A DNA stretch of 64,000 bases. Origin: an uncultured delta proteobacterium. GTDB lineage: Bacteria; Desulfobacterota; Binatia; UBA9968. Both the position numbers and the translations under genes were made by a program. The stretch spans positions 60,638-124,637 of the forward strand of contig CAVWLW010000034.1 in the NCBI GenBank assembly GCA_963755715.1. Reading direction: 5' to 3'. The notes under the pieces are model-generated. The model did not search any database, was not told the DNA's origin, and saw nothing but the letters and a program-made list of their open reading frames with translations. Positions 25,622 through 44,599 of the stretch are shown here, in pieces. Within the stretch, counting starts at the first letter, position 1. The number at the start of each line of letters is the position of its first letter.

Positions 25622-25734
25622 AAGCACCTCCTTTTAGGATTCCACGGGCGGGCTTTTCGATTGACAGGCGTTGAAAATTGACTCAGGCAAGAGAAACGAA
25701 ACTAAAAACCCTCCCATATTTTGTAGGTGATCCA

Positions 25735-26328: not shown

Positions 26329-27342
26329 CTATCGCGAGGCCGTGGCACGTGCCAATTCTTCATCGATGATCCGCGCGAAAGCTTCGAGGGGTTGAGCTCC
26401 CGTCAAGGGCCGTCCGTTGATGAAAAACGCCGGCGTGCCAGTGACTCCAAGACGCGTACCCTCGTCAATATCTTTTTGTAATGCGGTTTTGTGCACGCCG
26501 CCTGAGAGGCAGTCGTCAAACTTTTTGACATCGATCCCGGCTTGCGCGGCATAGCGCTTCAAATCATCGGGAGCCAATTTAGGCGACTCGGTAAAGAGCG
26601 TGTCGTAATATTCCCAAAACTTTCCCTGATCGTTCGCGCAACGCGCCGCCTCGGCGGCCCGCCGCGCCTGGGGATGGATACTTTCAAGCGGAAAGTCGCG
26701 ATACACGAGTTTGACTTTGCCTGCATATTTCTCAAGTAATTGCATTAAGGTCGGGTGTGCTCGCTTGCAGAACGGGCATTCAAAGTCAGAAAATTCGACT
26801 ATTGTAACTGGAGAGTTCGCCGGTCCTCTAAAAGGTGCTCCGTCCACCGATACTTCGACCCGCGCCGCCGCCGGCGGCTTTAAGTTGTCTACTATCTTGG
26901 CTTGTGAGCGGAGAGATGTGAGAAATTCTTCGCGCTTAGCCGCCAACTTTTGGTTTTGTAAGAAAGCTCTGATCTGCTCCCGAACCTGAGCCTGCTCTCC
27001 TTTGATCTGCGCTTTCTTTTCCTGATAGAATTTTTCGATCTCCTGTTCCGTGACCAGGCCGACTTTCGAGGTGATCTCAGCATCCAGTAAAGCCGGCACC
27101 GTGAGCTTGCGTTTGGCTGCTTCCTTTTCCAAAAGCTTCTCATTGATCAGCGCGTCGAGTTTCTGGCGTTTTAGATTGTAAATCTGCTCTTCGAGCTTGC
27201 TTAGCTGGCCCGCGAGACTTTTTTCGACTTCTTCCGAAGTGATCGCGGCCCCGTCCACCTCAGCCAGCGCATCGCCCGCCCCGTGAGCGTTTGTTGGAAA
27301 GCTGGATCCCAGCAAGAAAAGTAAAATCCAAAAAATCATCAT
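26329..27342 (-). CDS. DsbA-family oxidoreductase with SurA-like N-terminal domain
   Basis: Signal peptide; EFSDFECPFC, GVTGTPAFFING. Confidence 0.88.
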   Translation of the reverse strand: MMIFWILLFLLGSSFPTNAHGAGDALAEVDGAAITSEEVEKSLAGQLSKLEEQIYNLKRQKLDALINEKLLEKEAAKRKLTVPALLDAEITSKVGLVTEQEIEKFYQEKKAQIKGEQAQVREQIRAFLQNQKLAAKREEFLTSLRSQAKIVDNLKPPAAARVEVSVDGAPFRGPANSPVTIVEFSDFECPFCKRAHPTLMQLLEKYAGKVKLVYRDFPLESIHPQARRAAEAARCANDQGKFWEYYDTLFTESPKLAPDDLKRYAAQAGIDVKKFDDCLSGGVHKTALQKDIDEGTRLGVTGTPAFFINGRPLTGAQPLEAFARIIDEELARATASR

Positions 27343-27460
27343 TGGGGAAAGCGCTCCTTCGGTTCAAGCTTTATGAAAGAGAAAAAAGATATTAGCAGAA
27401 AAAAGGTCGGCAGCAAAAAGATCTCAGGAACCTTTTTGCAGCGAAAACGCTCCCTGCCTA

Positions 27461-29602
27461 TCATTTCTCCTGCATGACCACCAGAACTCCGTTTTCACCC
27501 GCCGCCAGCCGGCCAGCATGGAAGGTCGCGGGCGAGTCGGCCGGAAAATCGCGGTGCAGCGCAGCGAAAAGTTCTGCCGCTTCAGGCTCTTCCTGGCTTA
27601 GCGCGGTGTAGGCTTCGGCGTAGCGGGCCAGTAGCGCCGGCGGGTCGGCCGGAGAGACCGGCGCCAGGATAGCTACTGCATTTTTCCGGCCTTTCACGAT
27701 TATGTCACCAACAGGACGAAACGTATGGCGCGAGCACTGCGCGGCGGTCTCGCCGCTCACCGCTACATGGCTGCCGATATACTTGTTCAGCCCCTCCACG
27801 CGGGAGGCGGTGTTGAGCGTATCGCCCAGGGCGCCGTATTTCAGCTTGCCGCGGGTGCCGATATTGCCGACCAGCGCCATGCCGGTATGGACGCCGATGC
27901 GGGTATGGCCCCACTCGATGCCGCGCGCCGCAAGCCGGGCACTGAAGCGTTGGCCCGCTTCGTCCATCGCAATAGCGGCGGCCACGGCGCGGTCAGCGTG
28001 GTCCGGCTGGTGCATCGGCGCACCGAACAACACCACGAGGCCGTCGCCGATGAAGTCGTTCACCAACCCGCCATTTTGCACCACCGCATCGGTCAGCACG
28101 CCGAAATAGTCACCCAGCAGCGCGGCCACGGTGGCGGCATCCAAGTTCTCGGCCGTGGTGGTGAAGCCGGCGATGTCGGTGAAGATGGCGGTGATCTCGC
28201 GATGCTCGCCACCGAAACTGGGCAGTGTGTCGCCCTGCATCATCTGGCTGATGATGCGCGGGTCGAGGTAACTCTCGAAGCTGCGGCGCAGCTGGGCGCG
28301 TTCCCGCAGCCCCACCGAGTGCATGACGAAGTTGCAACCTGCCGCGCTCAGCACCCAGGCCAGCGCCACCGGCACGCCGGGCAGTAGCAGACCCGCGCCC
28401 GAGAACCCCCAAGCGGTGGCCCCGCCCACCAGGCCAAGGCCCAGCAGCAGTGCCAACAACACCACGATCACGCGCCAAACCAGCAGCGCTAACACTGCGC
28501 CGGCCATTGCCGCGGCCCAGATGGTGACATCGTCCATCAAGCGCGGCAGCGGCACCGGGTTGCGCGATTCGCCATTGGCTATGCGTATCAATTGGTCGGC
28601 GGTGTGCGCGTGCAGCGCAATCCCGACGAGCGGCCCCTCCCCGCCCCAGCCGGTACTCAACGGCGTAGCGAAACTATCCTTGATGGAGAGCGCAGCGGTG
28701 CCGATCAGCACAATGCGTCCGCGCAGAGTTGCCGCCAGGTCCGGCCGGCCGATGATCTCGGAGAAGCTTATCTGGCGGAAACGTCGATAGCCGCCGCGAT
28801 AGTCCAACAGCATCTGGTAGCCAGCGGCATCCAGCTTTGCGTAAGGGCCATAGGGCTGGTCGAGCAGCGGGATGCGGCCCTGGCCCAGCGCCAGGTCGTT
28901 GTCCACAATGCCCAGCCGCTGACCGGTGTATCGTTCGGCCAGGGCGACGCCCATCGCGGGCCAGTTGCGGTTAGTGCGTTCATCCGCAGCCAATAGCAGG
29001 GCCCGGCGCACCACGCTACCCGCATCCGTCACGTGGTCAGAGAGCACCTCGCGCCCGGTGCCGCGCAGCGCGGGCGGCGGCGGAACCCCGTCATTTCCTA
29101 CATCCGGCAGCTTGAAGACCCAATACAGGTTGTCGTGGGCACGCTGAATGGCTTGTAACTCCTGGTTGCCCGGCGCCATCGGCAAATCGCGGTACAAATC
29201 CACACCTACCGCCTTCGGCCCACTGGCGAAAACGGCCGCCAGCACGGCAGCAAGGTAGTTGTCGCGGATGGGGTAGTTCAAGCGGTTGATATCCTCTTCT
29301 GTGGTGACCACCAGCACCACTCGGTCGCTTTGTTGCGACCCCGCGAAGAAAGTCACCAGAGTATCAAACGCCGAAAGCTCTAGGCTTTGTAGCCAGCCGG
29401 TTTCCCGCAGCGATAGCAGCATCAACGCCACCAAGTTGGCTACTATCAGCGCCTTGACGAAACGCCGGCGCAACAGGGCGGCCAGCCAATGCCCCGTGCG
29501 TGCTGGCGCGCCTCGCGCCGACTCGACCGCGCCCCCATCAATGTACTTCAGCTTTCCCGTTCCCGTTGACGATACATCCATCTTAGGGGCCTGCTTTGCC
29601 AT
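27461..29602 (-). CDS. CHASE2-domain class III nucleotide cyclase
   Basis: TM, CHASE2 (PKAVGVDLY, VRRALL, RIVLIG, LHAH..DQL), 3 TM, FTDIAGFT, FIGDG, RIGVHTG, NTASRVEG; start uncertain. Confidence 0.9.
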   Translation of the reverse strand: MAKQAPKMDVSSTGTGKLKYIDGGAVESARGAPARTGHWLAALLRRRFVKALIVANLVALMLLSLRETGWLQSLELSAFDTLVTFFAGSQQSDRVVLVVTTEEDINRLNYPIRDNYLAAVLAAVFASGPKAVGVDLYRDLPMAPGNQELQAIQRAHDNLYWVFKLPDVGNDGVPPPPALRGTGREVLSDHVTDAGSVVRRALLLAADERTNRNWPAMGVALAERYTGQRLGIVDNDLALGQGRIPLLDQPYGPYAKLDAAGYQMLLDYRGGYRRFRQISFSEIIGRPDLAATLRGRIVLIGTAALSIKDSFATPLSTGWGGEGPLVGIALHAHTADQLIRIANGESRNPVPLPRLMDDVTIWAAAMAGAVLALLVWRVIVVLLALLLGLGLVGGATAWGFSGAGLLLPGVPVALAWVLSAAGCNFVMHSVGLRERAQLRRSFESYLDPRIISQMMQGDTLPSFGGEHREITAIFTDIAGFTTTAENLDAATVAALLGDYFGVLTDAVVQNGGLVNDFIGDGLVVLFGAPMHQPDHADRAVAAAIAMDEAGQRFSARLAARGIEWGHTRIGVHTGMALVGNIGTRGKLKYGALGDTLNTASRVEGLNKYIGSHVAVSGETAAQCSRHTFRPVGDIIVKGRKNAVAILAPVSPADPPALLARYAEAYTALSQEEPEAAELFAALHRDFPADSPATFHAGRLAAGENGVLVVMQEK

Positions 29603-30226
29603 CGCAATCTTGCTTTCTGTCCAGTCCGGCGGGTTGCGCTCTGCCTGGTTAGGCAGGCGCTTGGCCGCGGATGCAGCCACGGTTTGGCACTATCGTGTTA
29701 ACTGTCAACGCGACGATAAGTGTGTAGCAGGCAGCGCTAGCGCGCCATGGACGAACTCTCAAGCATAAAGGCAATCCAAACATTTCCATCGGATTTGTCC
29801 GTGTGCGGCTGAAATACATATCATCTTAATTCAGCCTCCAAAAGACAAACTCCCGAGACCACAGTCGCCTCGGCGCGGAACTTTTCCAGTCGCCGTATAT
29901 TACCCAACCACGATGACAAAACTATATGTAATGTCGCACAGCCTTCGCGCTCGCATTATCGAGCGAGGCTTCTGAGGCGTTTATGGAAGGAGTAGAAGCT
30001 AAAATTGAATGGCGAATCAACGAAGATTGCCTAATGGAATTCAGAACGCGACGTTCGGGCGGGTCGCACGTCGTTCGAGTTATTGTGGCGGCGGCTTTTA
30101 GTTGTCTACTATCTTGGCCTGCGACCATTCGCTCCTGGAGGGCAGGTTGGTGGAGCGTTTTCCCGGTCCTACGTATCGATGAATGACTAACGCCGGCGAA
30201 TGCCAGCGTTAATCACTACAAGCGAT

Positions 30227-30904
30227 CTATTCGTTGGTCGATGGTAGGCCAACCTGTTTCAGGAGCGCCGTACGCTCGTTGCGGAGCTCTTGGTTTTGAG
30301 GCGCAGCGTCAATTAGATCGGAGATCGACTTCAAAGCATCGTACCAGAGACCTGCCTGCGCGTAGACAAAAGGTAGCTCCTTGTCCGATGCTTTAGCCAG
30401 CTTCGTCTTGACATCTTCCTGCAGATCGACCCGCTCGATGGCCCCGCCAGCCAGGATGTCTTTCGAGCGCCGATCGGCATCGGGCACCACCGCAACAAAC
30501 CACCGATACGCTGCACCTGGCGCGAGGCGAACATTATAGTCGGCTAATCGAACCCGCTGAATTCCCGGCTTGGTAGGGGCAGGAAGCTGCGTTTCCAGGA
30601 TGGGTTTGACTCCTTGAGGATCCATCAGAGTAAGTTCAATCGGCAGGGAGGTTGGGTTGGAAATGAACCAGTAGAGCGAGGGCTGCTCGCTGGTCGTAAA
30701 TGCGCTGTGATCCGGCGCCAAGACGGACAGGACAAAGACATTTTGGCCACCGCCTCGTGTGCCGCCGCCTATGCGTCCCCCCGGAGCTCCGCGCGAAGGA
30801 GGGTTGTATACCGGCATGTTGGCATCCGCTGCAAATAACGAAACCCGCGTGCTAAGCACAAGAACCGCAATTGAAGACCAAACCATCGGTTTTAGGTACT
30901 TCAT
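30227..30904 (-). CDS. Exported DUF928-domain protein
   Basis: Signal peptide, PPSRGAPGGRIGGGTRG, TTSEQPSLYWF, YRW, YAQAGLWYDAL, LLKQVGL. Confidence 0.8.
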   Translation of the reverse strand: MKYLKPMVWSSIAVLVLSTRVSLFAADANMPVYNPPSRGAPGGRIGGGTRGGGQNVFVLSVLAPDHSAFTTSEQPSLYWFISNPTSLPIELTLMDPQGVKPILETQLPAPTKPGIQRVRLADYNVRLAPGAAYRWFVAVVPDADRRSKDILAGGAIERVDLQEDVKTKLAKASDKELPFVYAQAGLWYDALKSISDLIDAAPQNQELRNERTALLKQVGLPSTNE

Positions 30905-31257
30905 GTTCGTTCTCCTTAAATAAGGCTAGTAAGCAAGTGTTACGCCAACTTATAAGATCACAGCCACAGTGGATTAACAAACTGTTGCCCGGGTACATAC
31001 ATGGACCGGTTCTCGCCGTCAACTTCGTTTACAGCGGCTCGACATCATTGACTGCTGACCATTACCATCTTCGGATCGTCGCACCACCCGATCGATCACC
31101 ACCTTCCGCTTTACCCTTTACGTTGGGTTCTCCGACTTTTTCGGTCCGGAACTGGAGATCGAGATAAGACTGAGGGTTCCTACGGAAATCAGAACTGGGA
31201 TCCAAACACCGACGGTCAATGGAGATCATACACCGACCCCACGGCAGAAACACATCA

Positions 31258-33564
31258 TTAGAGCCAATTATTAATCATTAAAAAAGGCGACCAAAATCCC
31301 GGATGCTCATAGCGCGGATTGTTGATTAACTTTAGCTGCGCGCGCTGTAGCGCGACGGCCCTAGAAATGGAGGAATCTTTAAGCTCCCGGTAAAAATCTA
31401 TGACGAGGTCCACTGCAGCTTCATCATTGATGCTCCACAGGGTAGCCAGGGCGCTCCTGGCACCCGCTTTGATCGCCACGCCTGCCAGTCCCAACGCCGC
31501 CCGGTCATCTCCTGCGGCGGTGTCGCAAGCGCTCAAGGTGAGCAGCTCTAAAGGATCGTCGCGGAATCGGAACACGCCGATCATCTGATTGAGGCGATCC
31601 AATGATACTTTGTCATCGAAAGTGAGAAGAAAAGTATTGTCGACGTCATTACCAAACTCACCGTGCGAGGCGACGTGGACGATGCTAAATTGTTCTTCTT
31701 TCAGTTCCTTTTCAAAATTGGCCGTGAGGAATTCGCGGTCGACAAGATTCTTGCTTCCCAAAAGAGTGTGCAGCTCTTGAAGCTCCGCTGATACATTCGG
31801 CAACGCCGGAAATCCCTGAACAGCTTCCGTCACGCCAACGGCCAAGACCTTCATGCCCTCCCGTTTGATCGGCCGCGGATCGGTGAGATTCATGCTGGGG
31901 GTAATGCCCAGCGCATATTTGGCGATCAGGAATTGTTTGCCATCGTGCAGGGCTGCCATCGGAATTGTACGCAGCGCTCCGTCCGGAACGAAGATTAGGG
32001 TATCAATGGAAAACGCTGCCAAGTCCGGCTCTATAGGACGGATCAACCAGTCATAGAGTTTTTGAGCGTGAGGGAGATACTCTCGTGTTGTCCGTTTCTC
32101 CAGCTTGCGCCGGAACTCCCGCACCTCTTGCGTAATAGTCTCCATTCCTACCGGAACCGAAACTTGCTTCAGCCCGGTTGGCAAGCCGATCAGCAATTCT
32201 GTTCGATCCGGCAAAAGGATCGGATAGATGATGACGGTTGTCTTGGCCACAACGTCGAGCTTGGTAACTTTAGACAAAGCTGTGTCCACGCAGTCGTCGC
32301 GAAAATAATCCCGCAACTCGGCCGCCTTGAATAACTCCACCGTGTCGCGCGCTTCAATCAAGTATGGAGCAACCTGGTTCGGATCCCGCAGTGACTGTCC
32401 GCGTTGTAGAAGCAGATCCACCAACTCGAAGTACAGCGGTCCCATCGTTTCACGGAATGACGTTTGTGGAGCTCCGTAGCTGGCTGACAGCTCGGGTCGT
32501 ATCGACTGAAGCGAACGCACCGCGCGCCGGTATGCTCCAATAGCATCGTCGATGTTTCCTTGTTTCGTGAGCAGACGTCCGGTTTGCCATTCCCAGCGAT
32601 ACAGAGACTCGGGAGCATTTATTTGCTGGGCTGCGAACGTGGCACGACGCGTCAGCTGCAAAGCCTCGTCATACCTGCGTTCGTCTTCGTACAGCTTACC
32701 GAGATAGCCCCAGGCGTAGGATGACGTTCGCCGATCTCCTATACTATCACTGATCGTACCCGCTTCAGTAAAAGTCTGGTGCGCAAGCAGTAACAAGGAG
32801 TCCTTCAAGTCTGGAAGTCTTGACCGAAGATCATCGTAGGCCAACCCGATAGTGATCAAGCCGGAAGCTTTGTCGTGTGACGGTTCCAACGCGCGAATCT
32901 CATCCAACGCATTGTCGAGGAGCGCCTTGGCTTCCTTATATTGCTTATTTTGCATCGATGCTGTGGCTGCATTGATCAGCGCTTTTCCGGCCAGTACACG
33001 GTTATTGCGGGACTTCGCGAGGGCGGCGCTCTCGTTATACGCAGCAATCGCTTCGGGGTATTTTTTTTGCGCGGTTAGCAGGTTTCCCAAATTGTTGAGG
33101 ATCGTTGCCGAAAGATCCTGATTGTTCAGTTCCTTAGCGATTCGAAGCCCCTCGGTCAAATTTTTGAGGGCTGCGTCCTCAGGACCGGTGGCAATGTAGA
33201 GATTTCCGAGCGCACCGAGCACGGAGGCTACTTGTGTACGATCGCCGGCTTTTTCGGCCAGGCTCAGAGCTACATCAAGATTTTTTCCGGCTTCCTTGTA
33301 TCTACCCAGCGCTTGATTGGCCTGTGAGAGGTAAACCAGCGCTTCGGACTGCCGCCGGATTTCGCCTCCGCGCTCGTATAACTGAGCAGCTTCTGTCCAG
33401 CTCAAAGCAGCCTGTTCGAAGTCACCTCGTTGAAACAATTCCAGGCCGATCTTTATTTGGCGATCTGCGGGCGAGACTTCGGCAGCGAATAATGGGGAGC
33501 AAAAATCGGCAACAGCACAAAATAAGAGCCCTAATAAAAGAAAGCGAGAATGCTTAACACGCAT
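31258..33564 (-). CDS. TPR-CHAT (caspase/HetF-like) protein with signal peptide
   Basis: TPR repeats (LNNLGNL), PDGALRTIPMAAL, HVASHG (His), LSACDTA (Cys), HPGFWSPF. Confidence 0.92.
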   Translation of the reverse strand: MRVKHSRFLLLGLLFCAVADFCSPLFAAEVSPADRQIKIGLELFQRGDFEQAALSWTEAAQLYERGGEIRRQSEALVYLSQANQALGRYKEAGKNLDVALSLAEKAGDRTQVASVLGALGNLYIATGPEDAALKNLTEGLRIAKELNNQDLSATILNNLGNLLTAQKKYPEAIAAYNESAALAKSRNNRVLAGKALINAATASMQNKQYKEAKALLDNALDEIRALEPSHDKASGLITIGLAYDDLRSRLPDLKDSLLLLAHQTFTEAGTISDSIGDRRTSSYAWGYLGKLYEDERRYDEALQLTRRATFAAQQINAPESLYRWEWQTGRLLTKQGNIDDAIGAYRRAVRSLQSIRPELSASYGAPQTSFRETMGPLYFELVDLLLQRGQSLRDPNQVAPYLIEARDTVELFKAAELRDYFRDDCVDTALSKVTKLDVVAKTTVIIYPILLPDRTELLIGLPTGLKQVSVPVGMETITQEVREFRRKLEKRTTREYLPHAQKLYDWLIRPIEPDLAAFSIDTLIFVPDGALRTIPMAALHDGKQFLIAKYALGITPSMNLTDPRPIKREGMKVLAVGVTEAVQGFPALPNVSAELQELHTLLGSKNLVDREFLTANFEKELKEEQFSIVHVASHGEFGNDVDNTFLLTFDDKVSLDRLNQMIGVFRFRDDPLELLTLSACDTAAGDDRAALGLAGVAIKAGARSALATLWSINDEAAVDLVIDFYRELKDSSISRAVALQRAQLKLINNPRYEHPGFWSPFLMINNWL

Positions 33565-33576
33565 ATCTTTTCTCCG

Positions 33577-35352
33577 CTACCTACCGAAAAACTCTAGAGC
33601 GAACTGTAGATGAAACCCGTGGTCTTGGAGAGAATTCTCAGGATTCACAACTTTTCTCAGTCGATAGCCATAGTACATTTCGAACGATGGCCGGATTGGA
33701 ATAGGCCGTAAAAAGGAAAGCGCCCAACGGACGCCCCAGCCTACACTTGAGATATCCTTAGGATCAGGGGTTTTTAGGTTCACAAGCCACCCCTTCCCGT
33801 AGTCAATGAACGGGGCCAATTCCAGATAATCAGCCCAGCTCGTATTACTGATGACGGGCAGACGAATCTCGAAGGAGGCTAAAGCTGCCTTGTCTCTCAG
33901 CATCGTGTTCTCCCGGTATCCGCGCACACTATAGCGCCCTCCTATGGAAACCTGCTCGAGGGACAGAAGGGGAGAATCAGCGTATTGGAACTGCGACCGA
34001 AATATCCCATAGCTATCCAACAATCCAACATTCTTAACCCATGGATTCTGACCGAGAGGTTGGAGCCATTGCCCAAAACGTTGAACGAATTGAAATTGGC
34101 CTAGCCACGCGAAGAAAATCCCGTCCGGTAAACCATTGTGATTAACGGTCGCTCCCAATGCGTTCAGCCCGAACGAAAAACGCGATCGTGCAGCGAAAAC
34201 TTGAGACTGCGTACGATAGACGAATTCCTGGGCGGTGCGCAGAGCGGCTACCACGGATCGGCCGTGCTGAGCACCGGGCTCGAAAGAGAAGTCCTCCCCC
34301 AAGAGCTTCGTCTGTAGCCAGAGGCGCTCGCCGGTAAGCTCCAGAGCCAAATCGCTGTTGAGCGTCCGATAGACAGGCTGTCTCAACGTAAAGGTGTAAA
34401 TATCCGATTTGCTATCGACGTTCAGCGGCTCGAATGGCTGCTCGATTACGGACAATGTGTTTCTGCGATACTCGTAACTCAGAGCCGTGTCGTAGGCGTT
34501 GAACGGGAAAGAATATTTAAAATCGAGCAATGGATTGAGACCCTGCGATCGCCCGTATTGGCCAAAAAACACATCTCCGTTGCCGGTGAGGTTTTCGTGC
34601 CACAAGGTTACGAGCCCGCGGTTCTCGCCCACTGAGGGTGACTGGTAATTGTTGTATTCCGTAATGAGCCTGTAGGGCGTCCGCTCTTCGACGCGCACGT
34701 CCAAAATGCCCTCACCGGGCTTTAGCCCCGGCTTCAGCTCGGCGTTCAGCCGCTGGATGCGCGAGTCATCGAGCAGGAGTTGCAAGCGCCGCTGCAATGC
34801 ATTGACGTTCAGCGGCGGGCCGGCATCCAGTAAAAATCTTTTTTGGAAATAACTGTCGCGAAACCACCGGTTTCCTTCCACATCAACAGCACTTAACGTG
34901 CCCTCGATGATCTGATAAGTCAGCACACCTTCGGTCACTGTTTGATCTGGAAGGATCGCACCGGAATTGACGTAGCCGTTGTTGACATAGAGGAGGGTCA
35001 GGGCCACTCGAAGCGCCTCCAGATCCTCCGATGTGAGTTCCCGGTTCTTATAGGGATCGGTGACTTTGGCCAAGTCTTCAGGCGAAAATACCGTGCTGCC
35101 AACAACTCTGATCTCGCGGACAAAGGCGCGCAATCCTGGGAATGGCGTCGCTTGTGGCGGAATGGGAGTAGGAGGTAGCAGTGTCCCTGGCGGTTGTGCG
35201 GGAGCTTCAAATTGCTTGGGCAGCGGCGGTGGTTCACCCGAGCGTCCGGTTGGATCGATCTGAGAAGGAACGGCGATCGGAACAACCTGAGCACCGGCTG
35301 ATGAGCAGATTACAAAGAAGACGACCAGCGCAAATGACCGAATGACTTTCAT
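33577..35352 (-). CDS. ShlB/FhaC/HecB family two-partner secretion outer membrane transporter (TpsB)
   Basis: POTRA (IRVVGSTVFS, YVNNGYVNS), IGGRYSVRGYREN motif, beta-barrel C-terminus. Confidence 0.92.
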   Translation of the reverse strand: MKVIRSFALVVFFVICSSAGAQVVPIAVPSQIDPTGRSGEPPPLPKQFEAPAQPPGTLLPPTPIPPQATPFPGLRAFVREIRVVGSTVFSPEDLAKVTDPYKNRELTSEDLEALRVALTLLYVNNGYVNSGAILPDQTVTEGVLTYQIIEGTLSAVDVEGNRWFRDSYFQKRFLLDAGPPLNVNALQRRLQLLLDDSRIQRLNAELKPGLKPGEGILDVRVEERTPYRLITEYNNYQSPSVGENRGLVTLWHENLTGNGDVFFGQYGRSQGLNPLLDFKYSFPFNAYDTALSYEYRRNTLSVIEQPFEPLNVDSKSDIYTFTLRQPVYRTLNSDLALELTGERLWLQTKLLGEDFSFEPGAQHGRSVVAALRTAQEFVYRTQSQVFAARSRFSFGLNALGATVNHNGLPDGIFFAWLGQFQFVQRFGQWLQPLGQNPWVKNVGLLDSYGIFRSQFQYADSPLLSLEQVSIGGRYSVRGYRENTMLRDKAALASFEIRLPVISNTSWADYLELAPFIDYGKGWLVNLKTPDPKDISSVGWGVRWALSFLRPIPIRPSFEMYYGYRLRKVVNPENSLQDHGFHLQFALEFFGR

Positions 35353-35542
35353 CGCTCGATGTGAATTCGTTACGACAATAACTCTCGGCAGCGCTCACGC
35401 TCCGGCTTTGAAGCGTGTCGAAACGGGCCGAGTAAACGTGGAGGATCTAAGGTTTCGTGCCGGGCTCGGAACGGCAAGAGAAAAGCAAATACCGCAGCTC
35501 CGCGATCAGAGGGCAATTTGTTTGCCGGGCGAGAATAATCGT

Positions 35543-38500
35543 CTATGAACATTTACTGTTCGGCAGCAAAGTATACCGATCCAAACGTCGATCCCTTGAC
35601 CCAAGAAGACTCAAATCGGAAAACTGATTGTAACCGGTCGCTTTTGTCCCTGTTACGGCCGTATTCGCATCGTTTGCTACATAGAGCGGGCTCGGTAATA
35701 GATCTCCCGGCTGGAGAGGGAGACCGTCGCGCCCACCAACCACTAGACTGCTGGTCTTTCCTCCGGCGAATCTCGCTGCGCACGCTGCCCGCAGAAGTTC
35801 CGTTGCCTTGAAGCGGCGTTTCCGGTAATTGAGTCACGCTTCCTTCAACATTGGTAAACGTTGCCTCAATATTGACCGTTCCCGGGGTGCTCAGAGCCGA
35901 AGAGGCGTCGACAATTCCCGTTAGCGAGGTCGGAAATGCTCCGTTGCTATTCACCAAAAAGACATCCGCCGTGATGTTGATATTGCCACCTGGTCCACCG
36001 AAGGCGTTGGCCAAGATCCGGCTATTATCCAGGACAATGAGATCGGAATCGAGAGTAATGTTCCCACCGCTTCCTATCCCGCTCTGAACACTCGTCGTGA
36101 TATCACTGTCAGTCAGATGAACTAGCGATCCAGTGGTGGTGATCGTGATATTACCGCCATCCGCCAGAGTGGCCTGCGGTCGTGATGCTACCGTTCTGCA
36201 TGCTTGAGGTCGCTGGTGACGACGTTCACATTGCCCGCTGTGGCTGTTGCGGTTCCAGTGCTGTTCGCTGAAATAGTCGCTGCGTCTACGATCTGAACCT
36301 GCGGCGCTTGAAGATTGATATCGCCTCCGGCCCCGGTGCTTGACGCCGTGCTGAACAGCCCGGTTCCTGCGCCCGAGATCGAGGCCGAGTTAGCCGCCGC
36401 AACAACGATATCTCCTCCCAACCCACTGCCGCTCGTGCTGCTATCGACTCTAGCGCCACCCGTTTGCGTAAAGTTGGTCACGTTCAGCGCGATGTTGCCG
36501 GCATTACCCGCGCCTGAAGTCGCCACCGAGATCGTTCCGCCATCGCCCATCGTCAACGTCGGCGTGGAAACATTAATCTGTCCCGCATTGCCGGTGCCGG
36601 AGGCGGTGCTGAACAATCCGGTACCCTGACCAGATATCGAGGCCGAGCTCCGTCGCGTTGGCCGACACGCTTCCACCTTGACCTGAGCCGCTCGTGCTGC
36701 TCACAACCTGCGAGCCGCCCGTGAGGTTAAGAGCGTTCGTGTTCAGCAAAATGCTTCCTGCGCTTCCGGCTCCCAATGTCGCTACCGATATCCTCCCACC
36801 GTCAGCCATGGCCAATGTCGGCGTGGACACAGCGATCTGCCCGGCGTTCCCGGAGCCCACGAAGAACTGGCCCGCAAGCGTTCCGCCACTTTCGGAGGTA
36901 ACACCCCCACCATTCTGGACATTGACCTGATTGGCGCTCAGGGAAATATTACCCGCATTGCCATTGCCGAACGTAGTGGTCGATATGGAGCTACCTGCTC
37001 CGGTTGTTGGCGATCGGCCAGAGACAGAGATCGTGCTGGGACCGGTGGCCGTAATCGTCACGCTTCCGGCGTTGCCAGCGCCAACACTCTGTTGGCCGGT
37101 CAGGAGCACAATGCCACTGCTGCTGCGGATCGCCGCTCCGTCTTTTAAAAATAAGGAGCCAACATTGCCAAGAACGGCGCCAGCGTTGCCGTTCCAGCCG
37201 GTGGACGTTTCCATCCTTGTGTCCGCATTCATTGCCAGCAACGGCGTGGTAAACGAGACTCTACCCGCATCACCAGGTACGAAGTCCGTGACAGCTACCA
37301 AGGGATTGCCGGCCGAAGTCATCGCGTTGAGTTTGGCAAGGACCTGCATGAGATCGCCTGGGGCTGGCGCTACCCCTAGCCGCGTACGCAGCGAGGCATA
37401 GGTGAAAGTAGCGGCAGGGACCCCGAAGACGCCGGCAAATTTTTGGGCGAACGCGTCGTACTGGATATCCGGCGCCTGTAACGTTCCGCTCAAGATGCGG
37501 CTGTTTGCGCCCGTCAAGGTAATCGACTGACCCGCCGTCACGTCTACGACGCCCCCGTTTCCCGAGCCGAACGTATTCGCAGTAACCTGAAAGCCATTCT
37601 GAATATCAATATTGCCAGTGGCCGTGAGCCTTATACTACCTGACTCACCGACTAACCCGCTTTGCGCCGCGATCCGGCCAGTTTCGGCTCCCGCGCCAAC
37701 GAGAAGCATGTTCGCAGCGTTGATATTTATCGGGCCGCTACGACCAAAGGCAAAGCTATCGGTAGTTATCCGCGCATTCTCGAGAACCGTGAGGTTCCCG
37801 GTCAGATTGATTGTGACCGGAGCGCTATCGGCAAACTGAAAAAACGGCGAGAACAAAGTTGGCCCCTGGCCATACGCTGGATGAAAGTTGCCTGTCGAGC
37901 CGATGCCGGTAGTGCGCGAGCTTCCGTCCGAGGCGAGCGTCATATTGTTGCCGCTAATCGTGAGCGAGCCACCGCCGGTGGGAAAACTGCCTCCCCCGAA
38001 GGAATTCGACAAGGCTATGGACGAGCCTTTCCGCACCTCGATTGTATCCGCTTTGATCACGACATTGGAACCGTTTCCTGGCCCGAACCGATTAGCCACG
38101 ATTCCTGCTCTCCCTGACATGGAGAACGCGCCGGCTTCAATGTTAATCCCGGGCGCATCACCCACGACAGGCGTAGTACTAAACGACGCCCCGTTGAACG
38201 TAGTGATACCCGGAAGAGCAAGCGCAATAGGCGACTCGGACCCGGTGATAGTGACGGCATCGCTGACCTTAATGTTTACCTGGCCGCCAGCTGGAGCAAC
38301 TGCGCCGGGCAAGCGTACTGAGAATAAGAGGCCTGGAAATAGCGTAGCATCCGTGATCTGGAGCTGCCCACCGCGGATGTTGATTTCCCTTGCGTCGATG
38401 AGCGCACCACCCTTAATTTGGATATCGCCAAGTTTCGCAAAGGAATCGACATTGATGGCGGTGCCGATCGTGGCTTCACCGGGCGAGGCGACGCTCGCTA

Positions 38501-39242
38501 AGTTGACAACACCACCCTGACCACTCTGACCTTGCGCGAGGATAAAGCCTGCAGGAGGCTGCCCGGAGGGAGCGCCCACGCTTACCGGCCCGCCGACCAA
38601 TGAAAATGATTTTCCGTTGGGCACCTGCAGCCGAGTCGCGAACGACCCAGTGCCTGTCTGAACATCGATAGCTGCAGGATTGGACGTCAAAAAACCGAAC
38701 GCCGACGGGGGTGCTGAAGTCAAAGCACTGGCTTTTGCCGGATCGGCAAATAAAACGCCATCGGTTCCGAGCTTAACGTAGTCGGCTGTTGTGGCGTAAA
38801 ACGAGCCGCCGACATTGAGCGCCGCGGTGCGCCCGAAGATCCAACCGGCTGGATTCATCAAAAAGAGATTGGCCGCGCCGAAATTCGTCGCCGTTTGAAT
38901 AGTGCCGAAAATATTAGAAGTCTGCCCTCCGGTAACCCGGCCCACGATATTCGAAGTGGCAAGGCCGCTGTCGTTGCTAAAATTGGCGGTATTTCCTGTC
39001 GCAATATTAAACTGGCCGAAACTATGAAATAGATTTGAGCCTCTTCGATCTCCTCCGGTGATGGTGCATGTCCCACCAAGACATGGTGCACTGGTCGAAC
39101 CGTTGATCGCGGTACCCAAGCCGCTGGACGTGATGTTCGTAGTGACTTGGGCACTGACAGACGACACAGCGAGCGCGGCGAATAGCAGCACAGCCACCAT
39201 CGTCGCTCGGTAAGGACCGTGGAATGTCTGCGTCGTCACCAT
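35543..39242 (-). CDS. Filamentous-haemagglutinin-type TpsA exoprotein, split by several frameshifts (about 36645, 36200-36180, 35810)
   Basis: GGAGGAG SD, signal peptide, TPS domain NLFHSFGQFNI...NLFLMNPAG; Gly/Thr/Asn beta-helix repeats; C-terminal ANAFGGPGGNINI...GGRDGLP. Confidence 0.88.
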
Positions 39243-39343
39243 CTCCTCCTGTCCTTCGACCCAACAAATCTCGACGGCTTCGTTCCCAGGGGTGGCGAAG
39301 CATAGATCGACGCCTCGCCACCCAATTGCACCCCTAACAAATG

Positions 39344-40560
39344 TTACAAGCCCGAGACCTTCCTGGTTTCGAGATCGCCTACGACGCGCGTGCCGACGCA
39401 CACGCTCTTCCCTTCCTGCTGAACCACGGTGCCAATGCACGCCTCCATAGTTAGAGTAGCGGTCTTTTTAGCAAGATTTATTGTGTTCTCGACTACGCTA
39501 TGGCCGTTTATACACGATGGCACCTTGCATGCTAGCGTATCCGGATTTGGGAAGCTGCAGGAGTCTGGTTTGAAGACAGGAAAGTTAGGATCGTTCAGAA
39601 GCGTTCACCGTTATAGTCGCCTGATTGATCGCTTGAACTGCGATAGAATTGTTCGTGCTGTGCGGTTCTAAGTTGTTGCCAAGTATAGTTAAGTTGATGC
39701 CGCCTTGGTCTTTGCCAGGACGACAGTCCGCATTGATCGTTGTTGGACTGTACTCGGTATCAACCGTGAGGAAGTTCGCGACTGTGGCTTCCGCGGTGTT
39801 CTTAACTTGTGATCCCTTCAGGTCACAAAATGCCGCTTGCGCCGGGTTCCACGTGTCGGAATGACAGAATTTATTTCCGGTCTCTCCCATATCTATAATT
39901 TGTGCGTTTTGAGCGCATACGGCGCCCTCAAGAATCTGGCTGAACGAATAGACCACTTTCGTCGTTCCGAACGCGGCTTGGCACTGATTCTGGGTCATTG
40001 GCACAACTTTCTGTCCTTGCTTCGCACCCCAGCCAAGATTCCACGTACAACCTTTGCTGGTATTGCCGTCTGGGTCGCTGCCTGCGTAGGAGCAGAAACT
40101 TGCACCGGTACAGTCGATCGTTCCTTTTCGTTCGGGAACGGTTGCGGTCGGGCAGATACCGCTAACTGTCAGCGTGCTGCTCGCCGGGTTGGTGCCATTG
40201 TTAGCACAACTCTCGCTGAGATTGTTAACTTCGATATGAAGTTTGCAGGTGGCGGTCACCTGAAAGTCGGGAGTTCGGGCGGTATCTGTGAACGTGCATA
40301 ATACACTGCCGTCTTGAGTTACGCTGTCAGTCCCAGGGGTCGAACCGCGAGTGAGTTTGGTGGTGCCTTGGACCGCTTCGCAGTTAAGAATGGGATCCCA
40401 TCCTCCATCCCATGAGCTGGGAGGAAACGGTTCCCAACCGAACTCGAATTGCGCGGAGGCCGGTGGCGCAAACAAGGACCCGAGCGCGAGACACGCTAAC
40501 AGTGAAAATAATTTTGCCAAACGAGCGACTGCTCGACAATCGGTAGAATAGCTTTTTCAT
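39344..40560 (-). CDS. Exported cysteine-rich hypothetical protein (about 400 aa after correcting shifts near 40525 and 39605)
   Basis: SD + MKKLFY start, signal peptide ending ASA-Q; ORF 39585-40520 plus an open downstream frame LLNDPNFPVFKPDSC...KVSGL*. Confidence 0.65.
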
Positions 40561-40852
40561 TTTATCTCCCTCTTTTTTCAGCTCGTGTAAGCGACACAGA
40601 GCTGGCTGGTTTAACATGTTGATCAATTCCGAAACGACGGAAAATCCGTCCCTGTAACTAAACAATATCTAGAGCGACTCACGAAGGGTCACGTGCGTCT
40701 TGCATCCGCATAGTTCCTCCTCCGTTTCTGTGGGCTTGATCTCGCCCACACTCTGGCAACGCTTCCAATATCACCGAAGTATATTTTCGATACATGCTGC
40801 TATTCATTTATGCTCACAACCCCAGCCTTCGGATCGCCTGACTGCCCTCCGC

Positions 40853-40979
40853 TTACGCCTTGCCGCTCTCGGCGACCGCCAACTGCCCGTCCGCCGCGGC
40901 ACGGATGGCTGGCGTGGGTAGCACTAAGGTCGTAGCGATAAAGGTCCAAAGAAACGAAGATCGCTATCGTTTTCTTCAT
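40853..40979 (-). CDS. Putative 41-aa peptide, mostly signal sequence (needs one base removed near 40945)
   Basis: Corrected reading MKKTIAIFVSLTFIATTLVLPTPAIRAAADGQLAVAESGKA*; TTGACA-N18-TAGCGT upstream at 41054-41025. Confidence 0.35.
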
Positions 40980-41217
40980 GTTTAACCACCGTTCCCCAAG
41001 GCGCGAGATAGCGAGAGTGGCGGTACGCTAGTCATAGTCATTGCCTTCTGTCAAGTCCTATCAAAAGGTGTCAGATGGCCCCGAAATGAACCAACCCCTC
41101 CCTCGGCGCAAGCGAAAAACAGCGATGCATTAGGAAATGCTGTCGAACGCGAGCACAAGAACGCATGGATTATGCCATTGGGGTCGTTGCTCAACCAATA
41201 TGAAGTTTTTTACTAAA

Positions 41218-41323
41218 CAGATTGCTGAAAACCTGTTCATCTTCGAGAACCTCAGGACGAACGGAGAGGCGCTTTGAAATGACTGAGAGCTGTCGAAGCA
41301 TTCCGAACTTTTTCAGCAACCTG
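41218..41323. mobile_element. MITE-like element, 106 bp
   Basis: 14-bp terminal inverted repeats CAG(A/G)TTGCTGAAAA; internal CTTCGA..CTCAGGACGAACG / GTCGAAG repeat arms; no ORF. Confidence 0.55.
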
Positions 41324-41434
41324 CTAATCCGTTATTTCGTTCCGCACTTGGACGGATTAAATTAATCCGCTGTCAACTTGTGGTTACGTAGGCGTAAACT
41401 TTTGGATCGCAGAGTGTAAACAAACGGATTCGAT

Positions 41435-41741
41435 CTATTTCTCGTCCAGCGCAATCACGCCGTCCCATGTTTCTGGCGGCGGAGTTCTTTTGTATTCGTC
41501 GCAGAGCTTGAGGTTAAAACTGAGCCGGGCCATCGTTCTCGGAGTTTGCAATCGCCAAGTGAAATTTTTCTTTTGCTTCATCCCAAGTCTGCCGTCCGAA
41601 TGCGCCCAACGCATCGGCAAATTGCTCGGCGGACTTTTTATGTTTTTCGTCCACGTTTTCCGGTCGGCCCAATAGATGCACCACAATCGGCTGTGCCTTG
41701 CCTTTAAGCATGAATTTGCCTACTTCGCGGGCAACTAGCAT
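41435..41741 (-). pseudogene. 3' remnant of a class III adenylate/guanylate cyclase
   Basis: AREVGKFMLKGKAQP...DGPAQF / PPETWDGVIALDEK* tail; catalytic core absent. Confidence 0.7.
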
Positions 41742-41937
41742 TCTTATCTGAGCCCTGCCGATGCAATGATGTTCGTGCGCGTGCGCGATCGGTGAGCGAA
41801 CGCAAGCGCCTTCTACGCAGTGGCGATGCTAGACAGTCCATGTCGAGGGATATCGAAATTCTGCGGAGCACGCGACCCGGCTGTGTTTGCCTGGATCCGT
41901 GGAGGTTTAAGAAAAACACCCGGATGCCACGTCAGTC

Positions 41938-44599
41938 TTAGCCAATGAGTCCTAAGTATCGCCAATAGGGAATAGCGACAATCAGCGCGATGATATAGGC
42001 GATCGCATAGAAATACATTGATACGGCACATGAGCGGATACGAAAAGCCTTTGCCGTCAGTAGTCGAATAGGCGAGCATGTGCCAGTCGACCTGATAAGG
42101 AAAAAACCAAACCTCCGATGCGATCAAGATAATCATCGCGATGATCCACGGGCTCATGCCGACGTCGATGGACAACGGCAGCAAGGCGACTGACAAGGTG
42201 ACGACGGCCAAGAAGCTGGTGAAGATCAGCTTCAAGGCGTAGGTGAGCAGAGCGATGATCAAGAAAAACCACACCGGGCTGTCCATGAAGGGCAAAATTA
42301 AAGGCGACATGATGTCGACGAGCCATTGATCGATTTTTGCCTGTTTCAAAAGCGTCGGAATGGCCAGCGTCACACCCATGTGAATTAGCAACTCCCAGTC
42401 GATACCCTTGCGCAGCATGTTCCAATCGATGATGCCCGTATTCACCAGGGTCGCAAAGGCGATGATCGCGATCCAGGCACCGTCGATGCCGTGGTAGGGA
42501 GCCGTCAGCCAGCCTGTCACCGTGAACAGGAGCACGCCCAGGCTGATCCATTCTTTGTACGACAGCGGTCCAAGTATATTGAGTTGGGTCTGCACCATCG
42601 TGTAGGAGATCTTCGGTTGAGACTCGGGCCGATAAAGAAAGATCGTGCAGAGCAAAATGATGATGATCACCACGAGGGTCGGCGGCAAAGCCGCGATAAA
42701 CCAATAGCCCCAGGTAAACTGAGCGCGCACGTCGCTCGGCAACAAACCCCAGGCAATCAGGCTGGTCGTCGATCCGGTTAGGAAAAGAAATCCCAACTGG
42801 CCGAGACCGAGAAAGCTCGCGACGAACAAACCCGTCGACGCCTTCGACGGTGTTTTGTAGCCCAAGCTTTCGGAAAGGTTCACCAGCATTTGGCTGGTGA
42901 TCACCGTGCGCGCAGTTTGTTGCGGGATCAACGCCATGACGATCACGCCCATGATGCCGGTGGCGAAGATCTGCCAGTAATAACTGAGCGGAAACAGGCG
43001 CACGAGATGGAGCGAGAGCCGGTAAAATAGTCCGGAACCGGTGATCGCCGCGCCCAGCCCGAGCACGCCCAGCGTCATGAACCACGTCGTGCTGGCGAAG
43101 CCACCCATGACGGTCTCGGCCGATTCCAGCTTGGTGAGAATGATCGCCATCGCAAAGACGAGGGCGACGCCGTAGTCCGGCAGGACGCGGAAAACCCAGA
43201 AAATCAGCGTCAAAGAGATTAGACCGAGGAGCTTGACGGCCGATGAGTCGAGGCCGATATCCGGTTGGCCAAACCAGAGATAACCGCCCAATCCGAGCCC
43301 CATCAGCGCGCCTAGCCACTTACTCGAAGACGACGAACCCAACAATGAGTGCCATGACCTTATGCGAATCCGCGTGCCGACGCCGTTTTTGGCAACGGGC
43401 AGCGCGACAGTCGACCGGGAAATTTGTTGGGCGTTTTCTTGAAAGCCATCGGCGGCCGCGCTTTCCTGGCTGATTAAGTTGAGCGCGCTGCGCAAGTGAT
43501 TGATCGCTTGCTCGTATTCCGTGCGCTGCGCGAAGCTCTCCGCCATACGGCGGTAGCCCGCGATCGCGTCGGCGGCCAGCGCGCCGCTCGCCTTCTGCGC
43601 CACGGCTTCGCGGTAACATCGGTAAGCGCCCGCCATGTCGCCCAGTTGAATCAACGCGCTGCCGCGTAAAATGACGAGCCGGGGATCGGCCAAAAATTGT
43701 TCTTGCGGCAAACTTTCCAAGACATTTTTGACGAACAGCGGCGCTTGGGCGAGCAGTTGTTCGCTCCCCTCGGTCAAAAGCCTGATCAACTTCGGCCAGT
43801 TCTGCATCTGCAAAGTGTGATGAATCGCTTCCTGCAACTCGCCGATCGCCTCATAGCGGTCGGCGAAGAGCGCGTGCAAGCGCTGCTTCGTCTCCAAGCC
43901 GTCGATGGCAAGCAATTTCTCATGCAAAAAATCTTTAAAGAAGCTGTGCAGCTCGTACTTGCCGTTTTCCAAGCGCCGTATCAGCGGAAACTGACTATCG
44001 CCGAATTCGGTGATGAGACTCGTCGGCGCGTCGTTTTGAAACAGTTCGGTCAAAGTATTTTTATCGACCGCGCCGAGCAAAGACGCCTGGCGGAAAAACG
44101 ACTGTTCTTCGGCCGAGCGCGAGTTGTAAAACTCTTCCGCCAGGGAATTAAAAGCCTCGCGGCCGGTCGAATACTGCCGATCGACGTAGGAAAGCCGCTT
44201 GCTCAAAGTCGCGCAAAACTGCAGCAACCAGGTCGGGTGCTTTTCGATCAACTCATCCCAATCGTCGCGCCGCAGCCGCCAAAGGACGGTTTCTTTGACC
44301 GTACGGATGGTCGCCGAGCGAGGCTCTCCCGAAAGCAGCGCCATTTCGCCAAACCAGTCGCGCTGGCCCGAGGATCGCCACGACTTCGGATTTTCCCGCG
44401 CCGCTTTCCAGCAGCACCTGGACGGCGCCCGGCTTGGATCAAGTAGAACGCGTCGCCCTGATCGCCTTGGCGAAAAAATCGTCACCCCGGCAGGAAAAGA
44501 AATTTCTTCCATCTTGCCGAGAACCTTGGCGACGTCTTCGCGCGAAAGCCCGGAAAAAATCGGAATGCTGCGGATCGTATCGGCGAGGTGTGGCTCCAT
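41938..44599 (-). CDS. cNMP-binding domain + TPR/helical region + DASS (SLC13) transporter fusion, frameshifted
   Basis: IPIFSGLSREDV...FGEMALLSGEPRSAT; TPR-like RGSALIQLGDMAGA; GFASTTWF, FLTGSTT, FFPYQ; corrected end PYWRYLGLIG* at 41938. Confidence 0.8.

Follow-up and report, generated by a model that had tools for sequence, protein, structure and literature searches.

A conserved gene module of a two-partner-secreted filament, an exported TPR-CHAT protease, DUF928 and a CHASE2 receptor, and a proposed envelope relay

Introduction

Among the described systems closest to the one reported here, DdvA stands alone among characterized anti-sigma factors in having a periplasmic TPR-CHAT part, and its CHAT domain is proposed to cut a nearby flexible linker on signal (PMC11506125). 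DdvA has a transmembrane (TM) helix and a zinc anti-sigma domain of its own, acts through a sigma factor of the extracytoplasmic function (ECF) type and is narrowly distributed, being described for Myxococcota and one Comamonas (PMC11506125). In this study, we analyzed a 64,000-nucleotide stretch of DNA (hereafter the window) from an uncultured delta proteobacterium, which encodes a TPR-CHAT protease together with the two-partner secretion (TPS) proteins TpsA and TpsB, a DUF928 protein and a CHASE2 receptor with a cyclase output. These five components form a conserved module that is inherited together across phyla and that probably relays cell-surface events to the cytoplasm.

CHASE2 is a common extracytoplasmic sensor domain, and we know of no established ligand for it. 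Among two-partner-secreted filaments, the prodomain processing of Bordetella FhaB offers a comparable case. The TPR and CHAT architecture and fold are also those of separase and of Csx29, the protease of Craspase (type III-E CRISPR). Both differ from the window protein in being cytoplasmic, in being switched on by cell-cycle cues or by RNA-bound Cas7-11, and in having no signal peptide, TPS partner or second conserved Cys. In Magnetospirillum gryphiswaldense, MtxA (PDB 4z29) carries Ig-like and TPR-like domains behind a signal peptide, and a CHASE2-adenylate cyclase gene stands after mtxA (PMC4439547). DUF928 shares this two-domain fold, the signal peptide and the neighboring CHASE2-cyclase gene; MtxA differs by an extra N-terminal domain and by the absence of detectable sequence similarity, and the parts of the article that describe MtxA do not mention TpsA, TpsB or CHAT partners (PMC4439547).

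In Pseudomonas, the C-terminal end of the TPS filament CdrA, the partner of CdrB, is reached by the periplasmic cysteine protease LapG in a pathway with a nucleotide messenger (PMC4694147). LapG is a non-CHAT protease and the flow runs inside-out, from cyclic di-GMP through LapD to LapG, whereas a cyclase would be the output here; LapD/LapG-type domains were found in no scanned open reading frame (ORF) of the window. The CHASE2 and DUF928 genes of Nostoc punctiforme have been recorded side by side (PMC5587647). A search of PubMed Central (PMC), in which about 1.7 million articles and the supplements were not covered, returned no paper on the module and none relevantly linking DUF928 or CHASE2 with CHAT or TPS.

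Results

Distribution and gene order of the module

To assess the distribution of the module, loci were drawn with a DUF928 alignment, one genome per species, from the best 80 of 580 relatives retrieved with one peptide pattern, which gave 79 DUF928 loci. Partners were counted by searching the stop-to-stop ORFs of these loci with the window proteins. The counts are given below for all loci and for the 33 loci with at least 9 kb of sequence on each side.

CHASE2: 58 of 79 loci; 31 of 33 well-flanked loci
Cyclase: 59 of 79 loci; 30 of 33 well-flanked loci
CHAT: 54 of 79 loci; 29 of 33 well-flanked loci
TpsB: 53 of 79 loci; 27 of 33 well-flanked loci
TpsA tail: 39 of 79 loci; 22 of 33 well-flanked loci
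All four partners: 31 of 79 loci; 19 of 33 well-flanked loci
No partner: 9 of 79 loci; 0 of 33 well-flanked loci

Two control queries from genes flanking the cluster, a DsbA-like protein and a transporter, each matched 2 of the 79 loci. The gene arrangement is far beyond chance, and the co-occurrence across phyla that the initial annotation had proposed as a check was thus found. All-against-all clustering of the 79 loci placed the TpsA family in 51 of them and showed that no gene outside the five families is conserved, the remaining large clusters being shadow frames of these families. The usual order is TpsA-TpsB-CHAT-CHASE2/cyclase-DUF928, with ORF ends close or overlapping; alternatively, CHAT-CHASE2/cyclase-DUF928 stands opposite TpsB and TpsA. 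Complete sets carry seven phylum labels as recorded, although some labels of metagenome-assembled genomes (MAGs) look wrong. In one Candidatus Scalindua MAG (L023:11537-17976), the genes after DUF928 are a tandem pair of TpsA genes, both with the tail, and TpsB; neither CHAT nor CHASE2 was found within 10 kb.

The initial annotation had also stated that similar neighborhoods occur in cyanobacteria, and they were found on plasmids. CHAT homologs occur in 140 cyanobacterial plasmid records, six of which were inspected. The order is TpsB-CHASE2-TpsA-CHAT-DUF928 on a plasmid of Pseudanabaena sp. ABRG5-3 and CHASE2-DUF928-CHAT, with TpsA on the opposite strand, on a plasmid of Nostoc flagelliforme. 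A Nostoc punctiforme plasmid holds CHASE2, TpsA-CHAT and DUF928 inside 17 kb, and on an Acaryochloris marina plasmid DUF928 adjoins a fused TpsA-CHAT gene. On two of the six plasmids, CHAT was accompanied by TpsA or TpsB only.

The copy in the window

All six genes named by the initial annotation lie on the minus strand, and their domains were borne out by Pfam. The features are as follows.

27461-29680, minus strand: CHASE2 receptor with Guanylate_cyc domain (Pfam, E-values 2e-42 and 9e-20); start codon provisional
30227-30904, minus strand: DUF928 protein (Pfam PF06051, E-value 2e-39)
30752-30808, minus strand: N-terminal Arg/Gly/Pro motif of DUF928, YNPPSRGAPGGRIGGGTRG, defined by family conservation
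31258-33564, minus strand: TPR-CHAT protease (Pfam CHAT, E-value 3e-58)
33577-35352, minus strand: TpsB, with POTRA_2 domain, ShlB/FhaC barrel and signal peptide (Pfam ShlB, E-value 9e-25; POTRA_2, E-value 1e-19)
35546-39242, minus strand: TpsA, about 1230 amino acids (frame path from tblastn of the intact relatives L014, L006 and L003)
35687-35797, minus strand: TpsA tail motif, LLRAACAARFAGGKTSSLVVGGRDGLPLQPGDLLPSP (coordinates checked in the sequence)
36573-39440, minus strand: ORF of TpsA with the TPS domain (Pfam TPS, E-value 8.5e-34; NCBIfam TIGR01901, E-value 2e-19)
39347-40520 (ORF 39585-40520), minus strand: Cys-rich exported protein, an orphan family matching no Pfam or NCBIfam family

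The cluster had been drawn up to position 40979, which overshoots the start of the Cys-rich gene by about 460 bases. TIGR01901 (hemagglutinin N-terminal domain) is the sole curated NCBIfam name among the cluster proteins. Signal peptides were judged by an N-terminal hydrophobic segment followed by an Ala-x-Ala-like site, not by a predictor; the N-termini of CHAT, DUF928, TpsB, TpsA and the Cys-rich protein all run, by eye, from basic residues through a hydrophobic core to such a site. Rfam gave no match on 26000-45000, and promoter and terminator scans yielded no more than shuffled sequence.

Tblastn of intact relatives placed at least three frame changes in TpsA, near 36645-36705, 36175-36205 and 35810, and in the assembly the tail stands in another frame than the TPS domain. 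In the Cys-rich gene, the frame shifts near 39590, and its actual end is at 39347. Breaks of this kind reach beyond the cluster: rodA (20130-21223) has a frame change near 20300, the amidase gene (3438-4780) is split at 4364, and the middle part of the cyclic nucleotide monophosphate (cNMP)-binding domain in the gene at 41813-44599 is out of frame. Related MAGs (L002, L004 and L005) show gene splits like those of the window. Since rodA, the amidase gene and the cNMP-binding domain are broken as well, we read the frame changes as assembly indels, which is likelier than decay.

If the frame changes were real, the locus could be a decaying remnant, with the displaced cyclase a mere neighbor and the system not working in this organism. 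The broken TpsA and Cys-rich genes, the non-canonical gene order and the outlier receptor described below would fit this explanation. Nonetheless, the breaks in housekeeping genes point to assembly indels, and the broken pieces align full length with intact relatives at 52-85% identity. CHAT, DUF928, TpsB and the cyclase are unbroken and keep every catalytic residue, and the same type of CHASE2-cyclase stands beside the module in three relatives (L001, L002 and L005). We therefore consider a remnant the least probable of the explanations weighed here.

The TPR-CHAT protease

In the protease, about 18 helices form a solenoid between the signal peptide and the CHAT domain. The catalytic His and Cys reported for the window, His634 (HVASHG, 31663-31665) and Cys680 (LSAC, 31525-31527), are present and invariant in 52 of 52 aligned rows, namely the window and those 51 of 56 CHAT-hit ORFs that were long enough to align. 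A second invariant Cys, Cys425, lies at 32290-32292. A hydropathy screen detected an N-terminal hydrophobic or lipobox-like segment in 39 of 40 CHAT homologs, several of which have a Cys positioned as in lipoproteins. From these N-termini, CHAT looks exported, in line with the signal peptide assigned to it initially.

An AlphaFold2 model of the protein (mean predicted local distance difference test, pLDDT, of 86) had Csx29 (Craspase), DdvA and separase as its best Foldseek matches; the top entries (7xsr, 7y8t and 8d9f) had E-values of about 1e-12 and template modeling scores of 0.56-0.60. A sequence search of the PDB returned TPR proteins alone, with the CHAT part covered by no match. With the catalytic His and Cys and a TPR-CHAT fold like that of Csx29 and separase, the domain falls in the CHAT/caspase fold (clan CD). 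The likeness to DdvA extends to a periplasmic TPR-CHAT with the canonical dyad and to signaling from envelope to cytoplasm. However, neither a zinc anti-sigma domain nor a TM helix precedes the TPR part of the window protein, which has only a signal-peptide-like N-terminus and is therefore not of DdvA type. Instead of being built into an anti-sigma factor, this CHAT would be a free exported protein, or in other cases the C-terminal domain of TpsA, accompanied by TpsA/TpsB, DUF928 and a CHASE2 receptor, and the module is widespread where DdvA is not.

One locus (L053) encodes TPR-CHAT, CHASE2 and cyclase in a single ORF of 1417 amino acids. Its CHASE2 match begins at model position 56, past the first TM helix, which fits a periplasmic location of both CHAT and CHASE2. 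This is the lone example of such a fusion, none being found among the best 120 of 306 longer CHAT relatives. The idea that CHASE2 might itself be a CHAT-related caspase-like domain was rejected, as hhalign of the two profiles gave a probability of 0.5%.

TpsA, its tail motif and the fused proteins

Behind its signal peptide, TpsA has a TPS secretion domain and beta-helix repeats rich in Gly and Asn, and at the C-terminus it carries a conserved tail. It starts with the ATG at 39242, preceded by AGGAGG, and its stop lies at 35546, with TpsB 194 bases downstream. A TPS-domain TpsA beside a TpsB with POTRA domain and Omp85-type barrel makes a two-partner (type Vb) secretion pair, and export of TpsA through TpsB is predicted from these domains.

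The "Cys...GRDGLP" tail picked out in the initial annotation is a motif of the whole TpsA family, which is reported here for the first time. Its consensus reads LLR..C.AR, then SS(L/F)VV.GR(D/G/E)G.P..PG..LPS, that is, one conserved Cys followed by G-R-(D/G/E)-G-(L/V/I)-P. We found the motif in 41 ORFs, from the loci counted above, and also in cyanobacterial TpsA proteins. By eye, none of the 42 aligned rows of split forms lacks the Cys, and a Pfam TPS domain was detected in 12 of the 13 tail-bearing ORFs checked out of the 41.

The link between tail and CHAT is strongly supported by fusions among the longer CHAT relatives, of which the best 120 of 306 were analyzed, with TPS and CHAT tallied from a precomputed Pfam column. 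TPS and CHAT stand on the same protein in 113 of the 120, and the catalytic LSAC motif occurs in 117, about 90 residues from the C-terminus. A hidden Markov model (HMM) of the tail matched 98 of the 120, at the junction between beta-helix and TPR-CHAT. The distance from the match to the C-terminus is about 680-880 residues in 91 of these 98 and 514-621 in the other seven. Three of the 98 domain E-values were slightly below 0.001, and that of P0347 was slightly above, at 0.0019. In 93 of the 98, the 120 residues after the tail are free of hydrophobic segments that resemble a signal (mean hydropathy of at least 2.0 over 10 residues). The position of the motif at the junction argues that split and fused forms derive from one polypeptide, the split pair by fission or the fused form by fusion, with the tail as the conserved joint.

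The CHAT dyad is kept in all 98 fused forms, which conserve exactly three Cys: the tail Cys (97/98), the equivalent of Cys425 (98/98) and the catalytic Cys (98/98). Split forms keep Cys425 and Cys680 in 40 of 40 rows, and cyanobacterial proteins show the same Cys conservation. This co-conservation suggests a putative disulfide between the tail Cys and Cys425.

The fused TpsA-TPR-CHAT proteins (P0301-P0420; L084:6821-12091) are 1350-3270 amino acids long, with the two parts joined by the one-Cys tail motif. Most are annotated as "filamentous hemagglutinin family protein" or "CHAT domain-containing protein". The gene context of the fused form was examined in one case, Acaryochloris marina pREB1, where it stands beside DUF928.

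DUF928 and its MtxA-like fold

DUF928 scored 132.7 bits against a Pfam cut-off of 26 and belongs to a family of 5120 representative clusters at E-values up to 1e-3. The protein is made of a signal peptide, an N-terminal motif, an Fn3/Ig-like sandwich (residues 59-158) and a TPR-like helical bundle (residues 163-224). The signal peptide noted initially is supported by an N-terminal hydrophobic core upstream of the domain in all 35 evaluable homologs (10 of 45 were not evaluable). The N-terminal stretch PPSRGAPGGRIGGGTRG is present in the sequence, but the initial description of it as an exposed linker did not hold: it belongs to the most conserved motif of the family, and the best-conserved part outside the fold, with a recognizable version in cyanobacteria. 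Over 45 rows, Gly47 and Arg50 are invariant, and conservation reaches at least 90% at Tyr33, Pro35, Pro36, Gly39, Ala40, Pro41, Arg44 and Gly51.

In an AlphaFold2 model (pLDDT 89), the motif is less ordered and follows the signal helix. The best Foldseek match was the C-terminal domain of MtxA (4z29; E-value 1.4e-5 over 176 aligned columns). A DUF928 profile matched none of the PDB sequences at E-values up to 1, so no sequence homology to MtxA is detectable, and the MtxA-like fold of DUF928, new here, is that of the predicted model. In a complex prediction with a 45-row alignment for each partner, the two scores for CHASE2 (residues 93-395) with DUF928 (residues 26-225) were 0.07 and 0.01, below the mark of 0.32, which counts neither for nor against their contact.

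Some relatives carry DUF928 in other settings. One protein of 906 amino acids, possibly a read-through gene call, combines CHASE2-cyclase, a signal-like segment and DUF928, and fusions of PG_binding_1 with DUF928 occur. In P0236 (493 amino acids), a zinc-finger anti-sigma-like N-terminus and a single TM segment are connected by a long spacer rich in Pro and Ala to a C-terminal DUF928 that retains its motif; this architecture suggests that DUF928 may act as the direct periplasmic sensor of a sigma-factor pathway. A motif common to the TpsA tail and the DUF928 N-terminus was also considered and set aside as speculation, being statistically unsupported.

The CHASE2 receptor and cyclase

In the receptor, TM1 (about residues 73-91) precedes CHASE2, which occupies about residues 93-395 on the periplasmic side; more TM segments (395-449) and the cyclase (492-668) come after it. 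The hydrophobic segments at 73-91, 395-413 and 431-449, found with a simple hydropathy scan, bracket CHASE2 and thereby place the cyclase on the cytoplasmic side, giving a CHASE2 transmembrane receptor with a cytoplasmic output. The class III metal pair Asp502 and Asp546 and the transition-state residues Asn623 and Arg627 are each present in 42 of 42 rows (the window and 41 of 63 cyclase-hit ORFs).

Adenylate cyclases typically specify their base with a Lys/Asp pair. In the 42-row alignment, this adenine-specifying pair is absent from the window cyclase, which has Asp542 and Gly616 at the two positions, and the product nucleotide is thus left unspecified. Over the 42 rows, the first position is D in 18, K in 9, Q in 8 and other residues in 7; the second is T in 25, A in 7, V in 5, G in 3 and N in 2. 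The best PDB sequence matches were 2w01 (E-value 1e-32), which we take to be Cya2 of Synechocystis, a guanylyl cyclase, and 6fht (E-value 3e-31); the search output labels both only "adenylate cyclase". Both share the Gly at the second specificity position with the window cyclase, and they differ from it by Glu (2w01) or Lys (6fht) in place of Asp at the first and by having no CHASE2.

The window receptor and those of L001, L002 and L005 form an outlier type, about 31% identical to canonical module receptors. Their periplasmic domain is 29-36% identical to canonical ones, which are about 50% identical to each other, and 39% identical to that of L060. The window DUF928 and CHAT, by comparison, are 64-76% and 80-82% identical to those of L003, L004 and L006. 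From these identities, the receptor of this clade was evidently swapped for a distant paralog of the same architecture, a replacement which argues that the module needs such a receptor. The initial account of the CHASE2 cyclase is corrected in two points: it is a displaced paralog, and it has no adenine-specifying Lys.

The output of the CHASE2 receptor is a cyclase in 58 loci; Pseudanabaena has a HATPase_c kinase instead, and Nostoc flagelliforme a CHAT-like domain. Judging from these architectures, the cytoplasmic output domain is interchangeable, a point new here; an outside-in relay would predict just such a variable output behind periplasmic parts that stay constant. A metacaspase-CHASE2 fusion is on record in Trichodesmium (PMC2853523). 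On the Nostoc plasmids (L082:5520-7895; L082:4576-5493; L080:120-2380), the CHASE2 protein has an N-terminal CHAT-like domain and not a cyclase. A DUF1822 gene adjoins the cluster on both Nostoc plasmids, and in PCC 7120 a sigma-70 gene stands beside it; these neighbors hint at a further output route.

The components could also divide into two unconnected parts. In this alternative, TPR-CHAT is a processing protease that cuts the TpsA tail or junction and matures or releases the adhesin, while DUF928 and CHASE2 form a separate pair regulating operon expression. The tail motif lies where a self-processing site would be expected in the 98 fused proteins, and LapG is a periplasmic protease that frees the TpsA-type adhesin CdrA from the surface (PMC4694147). 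Two loci (L060 and L072) have DUF928 and CHASE2 with no CHAT or TpsB within 10 kb, MtxA and the CHASE2-cyclase are described as a pair (PMC4439547), and in the window's clade the receptor was exchanged with CHAT and DUF928 little changed. Yet CHAT and CHASE2 genes adjoin, with ORF ends close or overlapping, in most loci and are fused in L053, and the Acaryochloris DUF928 gene stands beside the fused TpsA-CHAT gene in a stretch where no CHASE2 gene is listed. A pure expression regulator would need no such constant linkage across phyla. We regard this division as unlikely, if the most serious competitor of a joint relay.

Neighboring genes

The six-gene set had initially been taken as a unit, which held for the five families and not for the Cys-rich gene. 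The Cys-rich protein has 30 homologs, mostly of about 400 amino acids, and an Atlas search with it gave no usable match. It was rejected as a module member, since none of the 79 loci has it, not even relatives whose sequence extends upstream of TpsA; from this distribution, the gene appears to be a lineage-specific neighbor. Downstream of the cluster (23986-27342, minus strand), a thiol-disulfide set comprises a DsbD-type membrane protein, a thioredoxin of the AhpC/TSA-like kind and a DsbA-like protein, whose N-terminus is SurA-like and whose nearest NCBIfam family is the Rcas_1661 thioredoxin-like lipoprotein. These genes were likewise rejected as members, the two loci with the DsbA-like gene (L002 and L005) reflecting lineage synteny. 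The set is of interest beside the proposed Cys pair of tail and CHAT and the Cys-rich protein.

The gene immediately upstream of the cluster (41813-44599, minus strand) joins a cNMP-binding domain to TPR and a transporter of the Na/sulfate-symporter type. Locally, it might act as an effector of the cyclase product; as a conserved effector it was rejected, the two loci that have it being L006 and L020.

This gene bears on the idea that the module is an envelope or phage alarm, in which a DdvA-like periplasmic TPR-CHAT senses an invader- or damage-derived protein, the filament serves as bait and the cyclic nucleotide triggers defense or dormancy. The model of the window CHAT is similar to DdvA, the periplasmic TPR-CHAT behind the control of a CBASS-CRISPR island (PMC11506125), the cyclase generically matches Pycsar cyclase models, and the cNMP-binding transporter gene is immediately upstream. 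The PADLOC matches, however, reflect only shared class III cyclase (PycC), TPR and cNMP-domain homology; DUF928, TpsA and TpsB match no PADLOC defense model, and no effector gene is conserved with the module. An alarm function is accordingly very unlikely.

Periplasmic binding proteins of the ABC_sub_bind family (PF04392) are encoded in the last 19 kb of the window (44611-63970, minus strand) by at least eight genes, paralogous or fragmentary, among which lie genes for a REC-cyclase (46600-47787) and a dCache-HAMP-GAF histidine kinase (48549-50969). A gene for a 23S rRNA intervening-sequence protein also lies among them, at 48123-48482. At 11043-13004 (plus strand), between lipoyl synthase and histidine phosphatase genes, a 653-amino-acid ORF matches no Pfam family at E-values up to 1e-5.

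Discussion

TpsA, TpsB, TPR-CHAT, the CHASE2 receptor and DUF928 occur together across phyla as a conserved module, and for this module a relay from the surface into the cytoplasm is well supported. On the working of this module, our leading reading is that the window holds one copy of a widespread five-component envelope signaling module with the following relay, a proposal we hold tentatively and rate a little short of an even chance. TpsB would export the beta-helix of TpsA to the surface while the conserved C-terminal tail would remain periplasmic, an arrangement suggested by analogy with CdrA/LapG and FhaB. TPR-CHAT would hold the tail in the periplasm, possibly by a disulfide that joins the tail Cys to Cys425. 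An event affecting the filament at the surface, such as engagement, pulling, loss or failed export, would alter the occupancy of the protease by the tail and switch its activity. The protease might then cut at an Arg-Gly-type site, located in the tail, in the conserved motif near the DUF928 N-terminus, or in both. DUF928, as an MtxA-type periplasmic adaptor with Fn3 and TPR-like parts, would pass the change on to CHASE2, and the cytoplasmic cyclase would produce a cyclic nucleotide. The weakest part of this mechanism is the order of the tail-switch, cleavage and DUF928 steps, and the cutting of DUF928 by CHAT, suggested in the initial annotation, is possible but unsupported.

A narrower version makes the module a tethered mechano- or integrity sensor. 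The filament would stay in TpsB, with its tail disulfide-locked on CHAT as a pseudo-substrate; force on the filament or its loss would draw the Arg-Gly motif into the active site or out of it, the released protease would clip the similar N-terminal motif of DUF928, and clipped DUF928 would be the long-sought protein ligand of CHASE2. We consider this version improbable as it stands, though less so than an alarm or a remnant.

Several points weigh against the relay. The 79 DUF928 loci are a sample and not a census, and among the 33 with full flanks CHAT is absent from four and TpsB from six. TpsA of the window has at least three frame changes, so that decay of this copy is conceivable, although rodA is also broken. 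The receptor of the window belongs to the outlier type, and its gene is placed after DUF928 with a 546-base gap between; the swap makes a tight co-adaptation of DUF928 with the CHASE2 surface doubtful. The direction and order of events are deduced from computation, and cleavage by CHAT at an Arg-Gly-type site is suggested by conserved motifs. Comparison of the TpsA tail with the DUF928 N-terminal motif by hhalign was not significant (probability 1.3%, P = 0.039). Finally, deletion of mtxA gave no phenotype under the standard conditions described (PMC4439547).

The module gives concrete protein partners for CHASE2 and DUF928, in place of a hunt for small-molecule ligands, and extends the periplasmic TPR-CHAT theme, characterized so far only in DdvA, to many phyla. 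The many TpsA proteins with a C-terminal TPR-CHAT, attached through a one-Cys motif, constitute a new TpsA class. Culturable carriers of the module on plasmids are Pseudanabaena sp. ABRG5-3, Nostoc punctiforme and Acaryochloris marina. If the sensor version of the proposal were true, CHASE2 receptors, with their cyclase, kinase or caspase outputs, would gain their first defined input, and a caspase-fold protease relay would operate in the bacterial periplasm.

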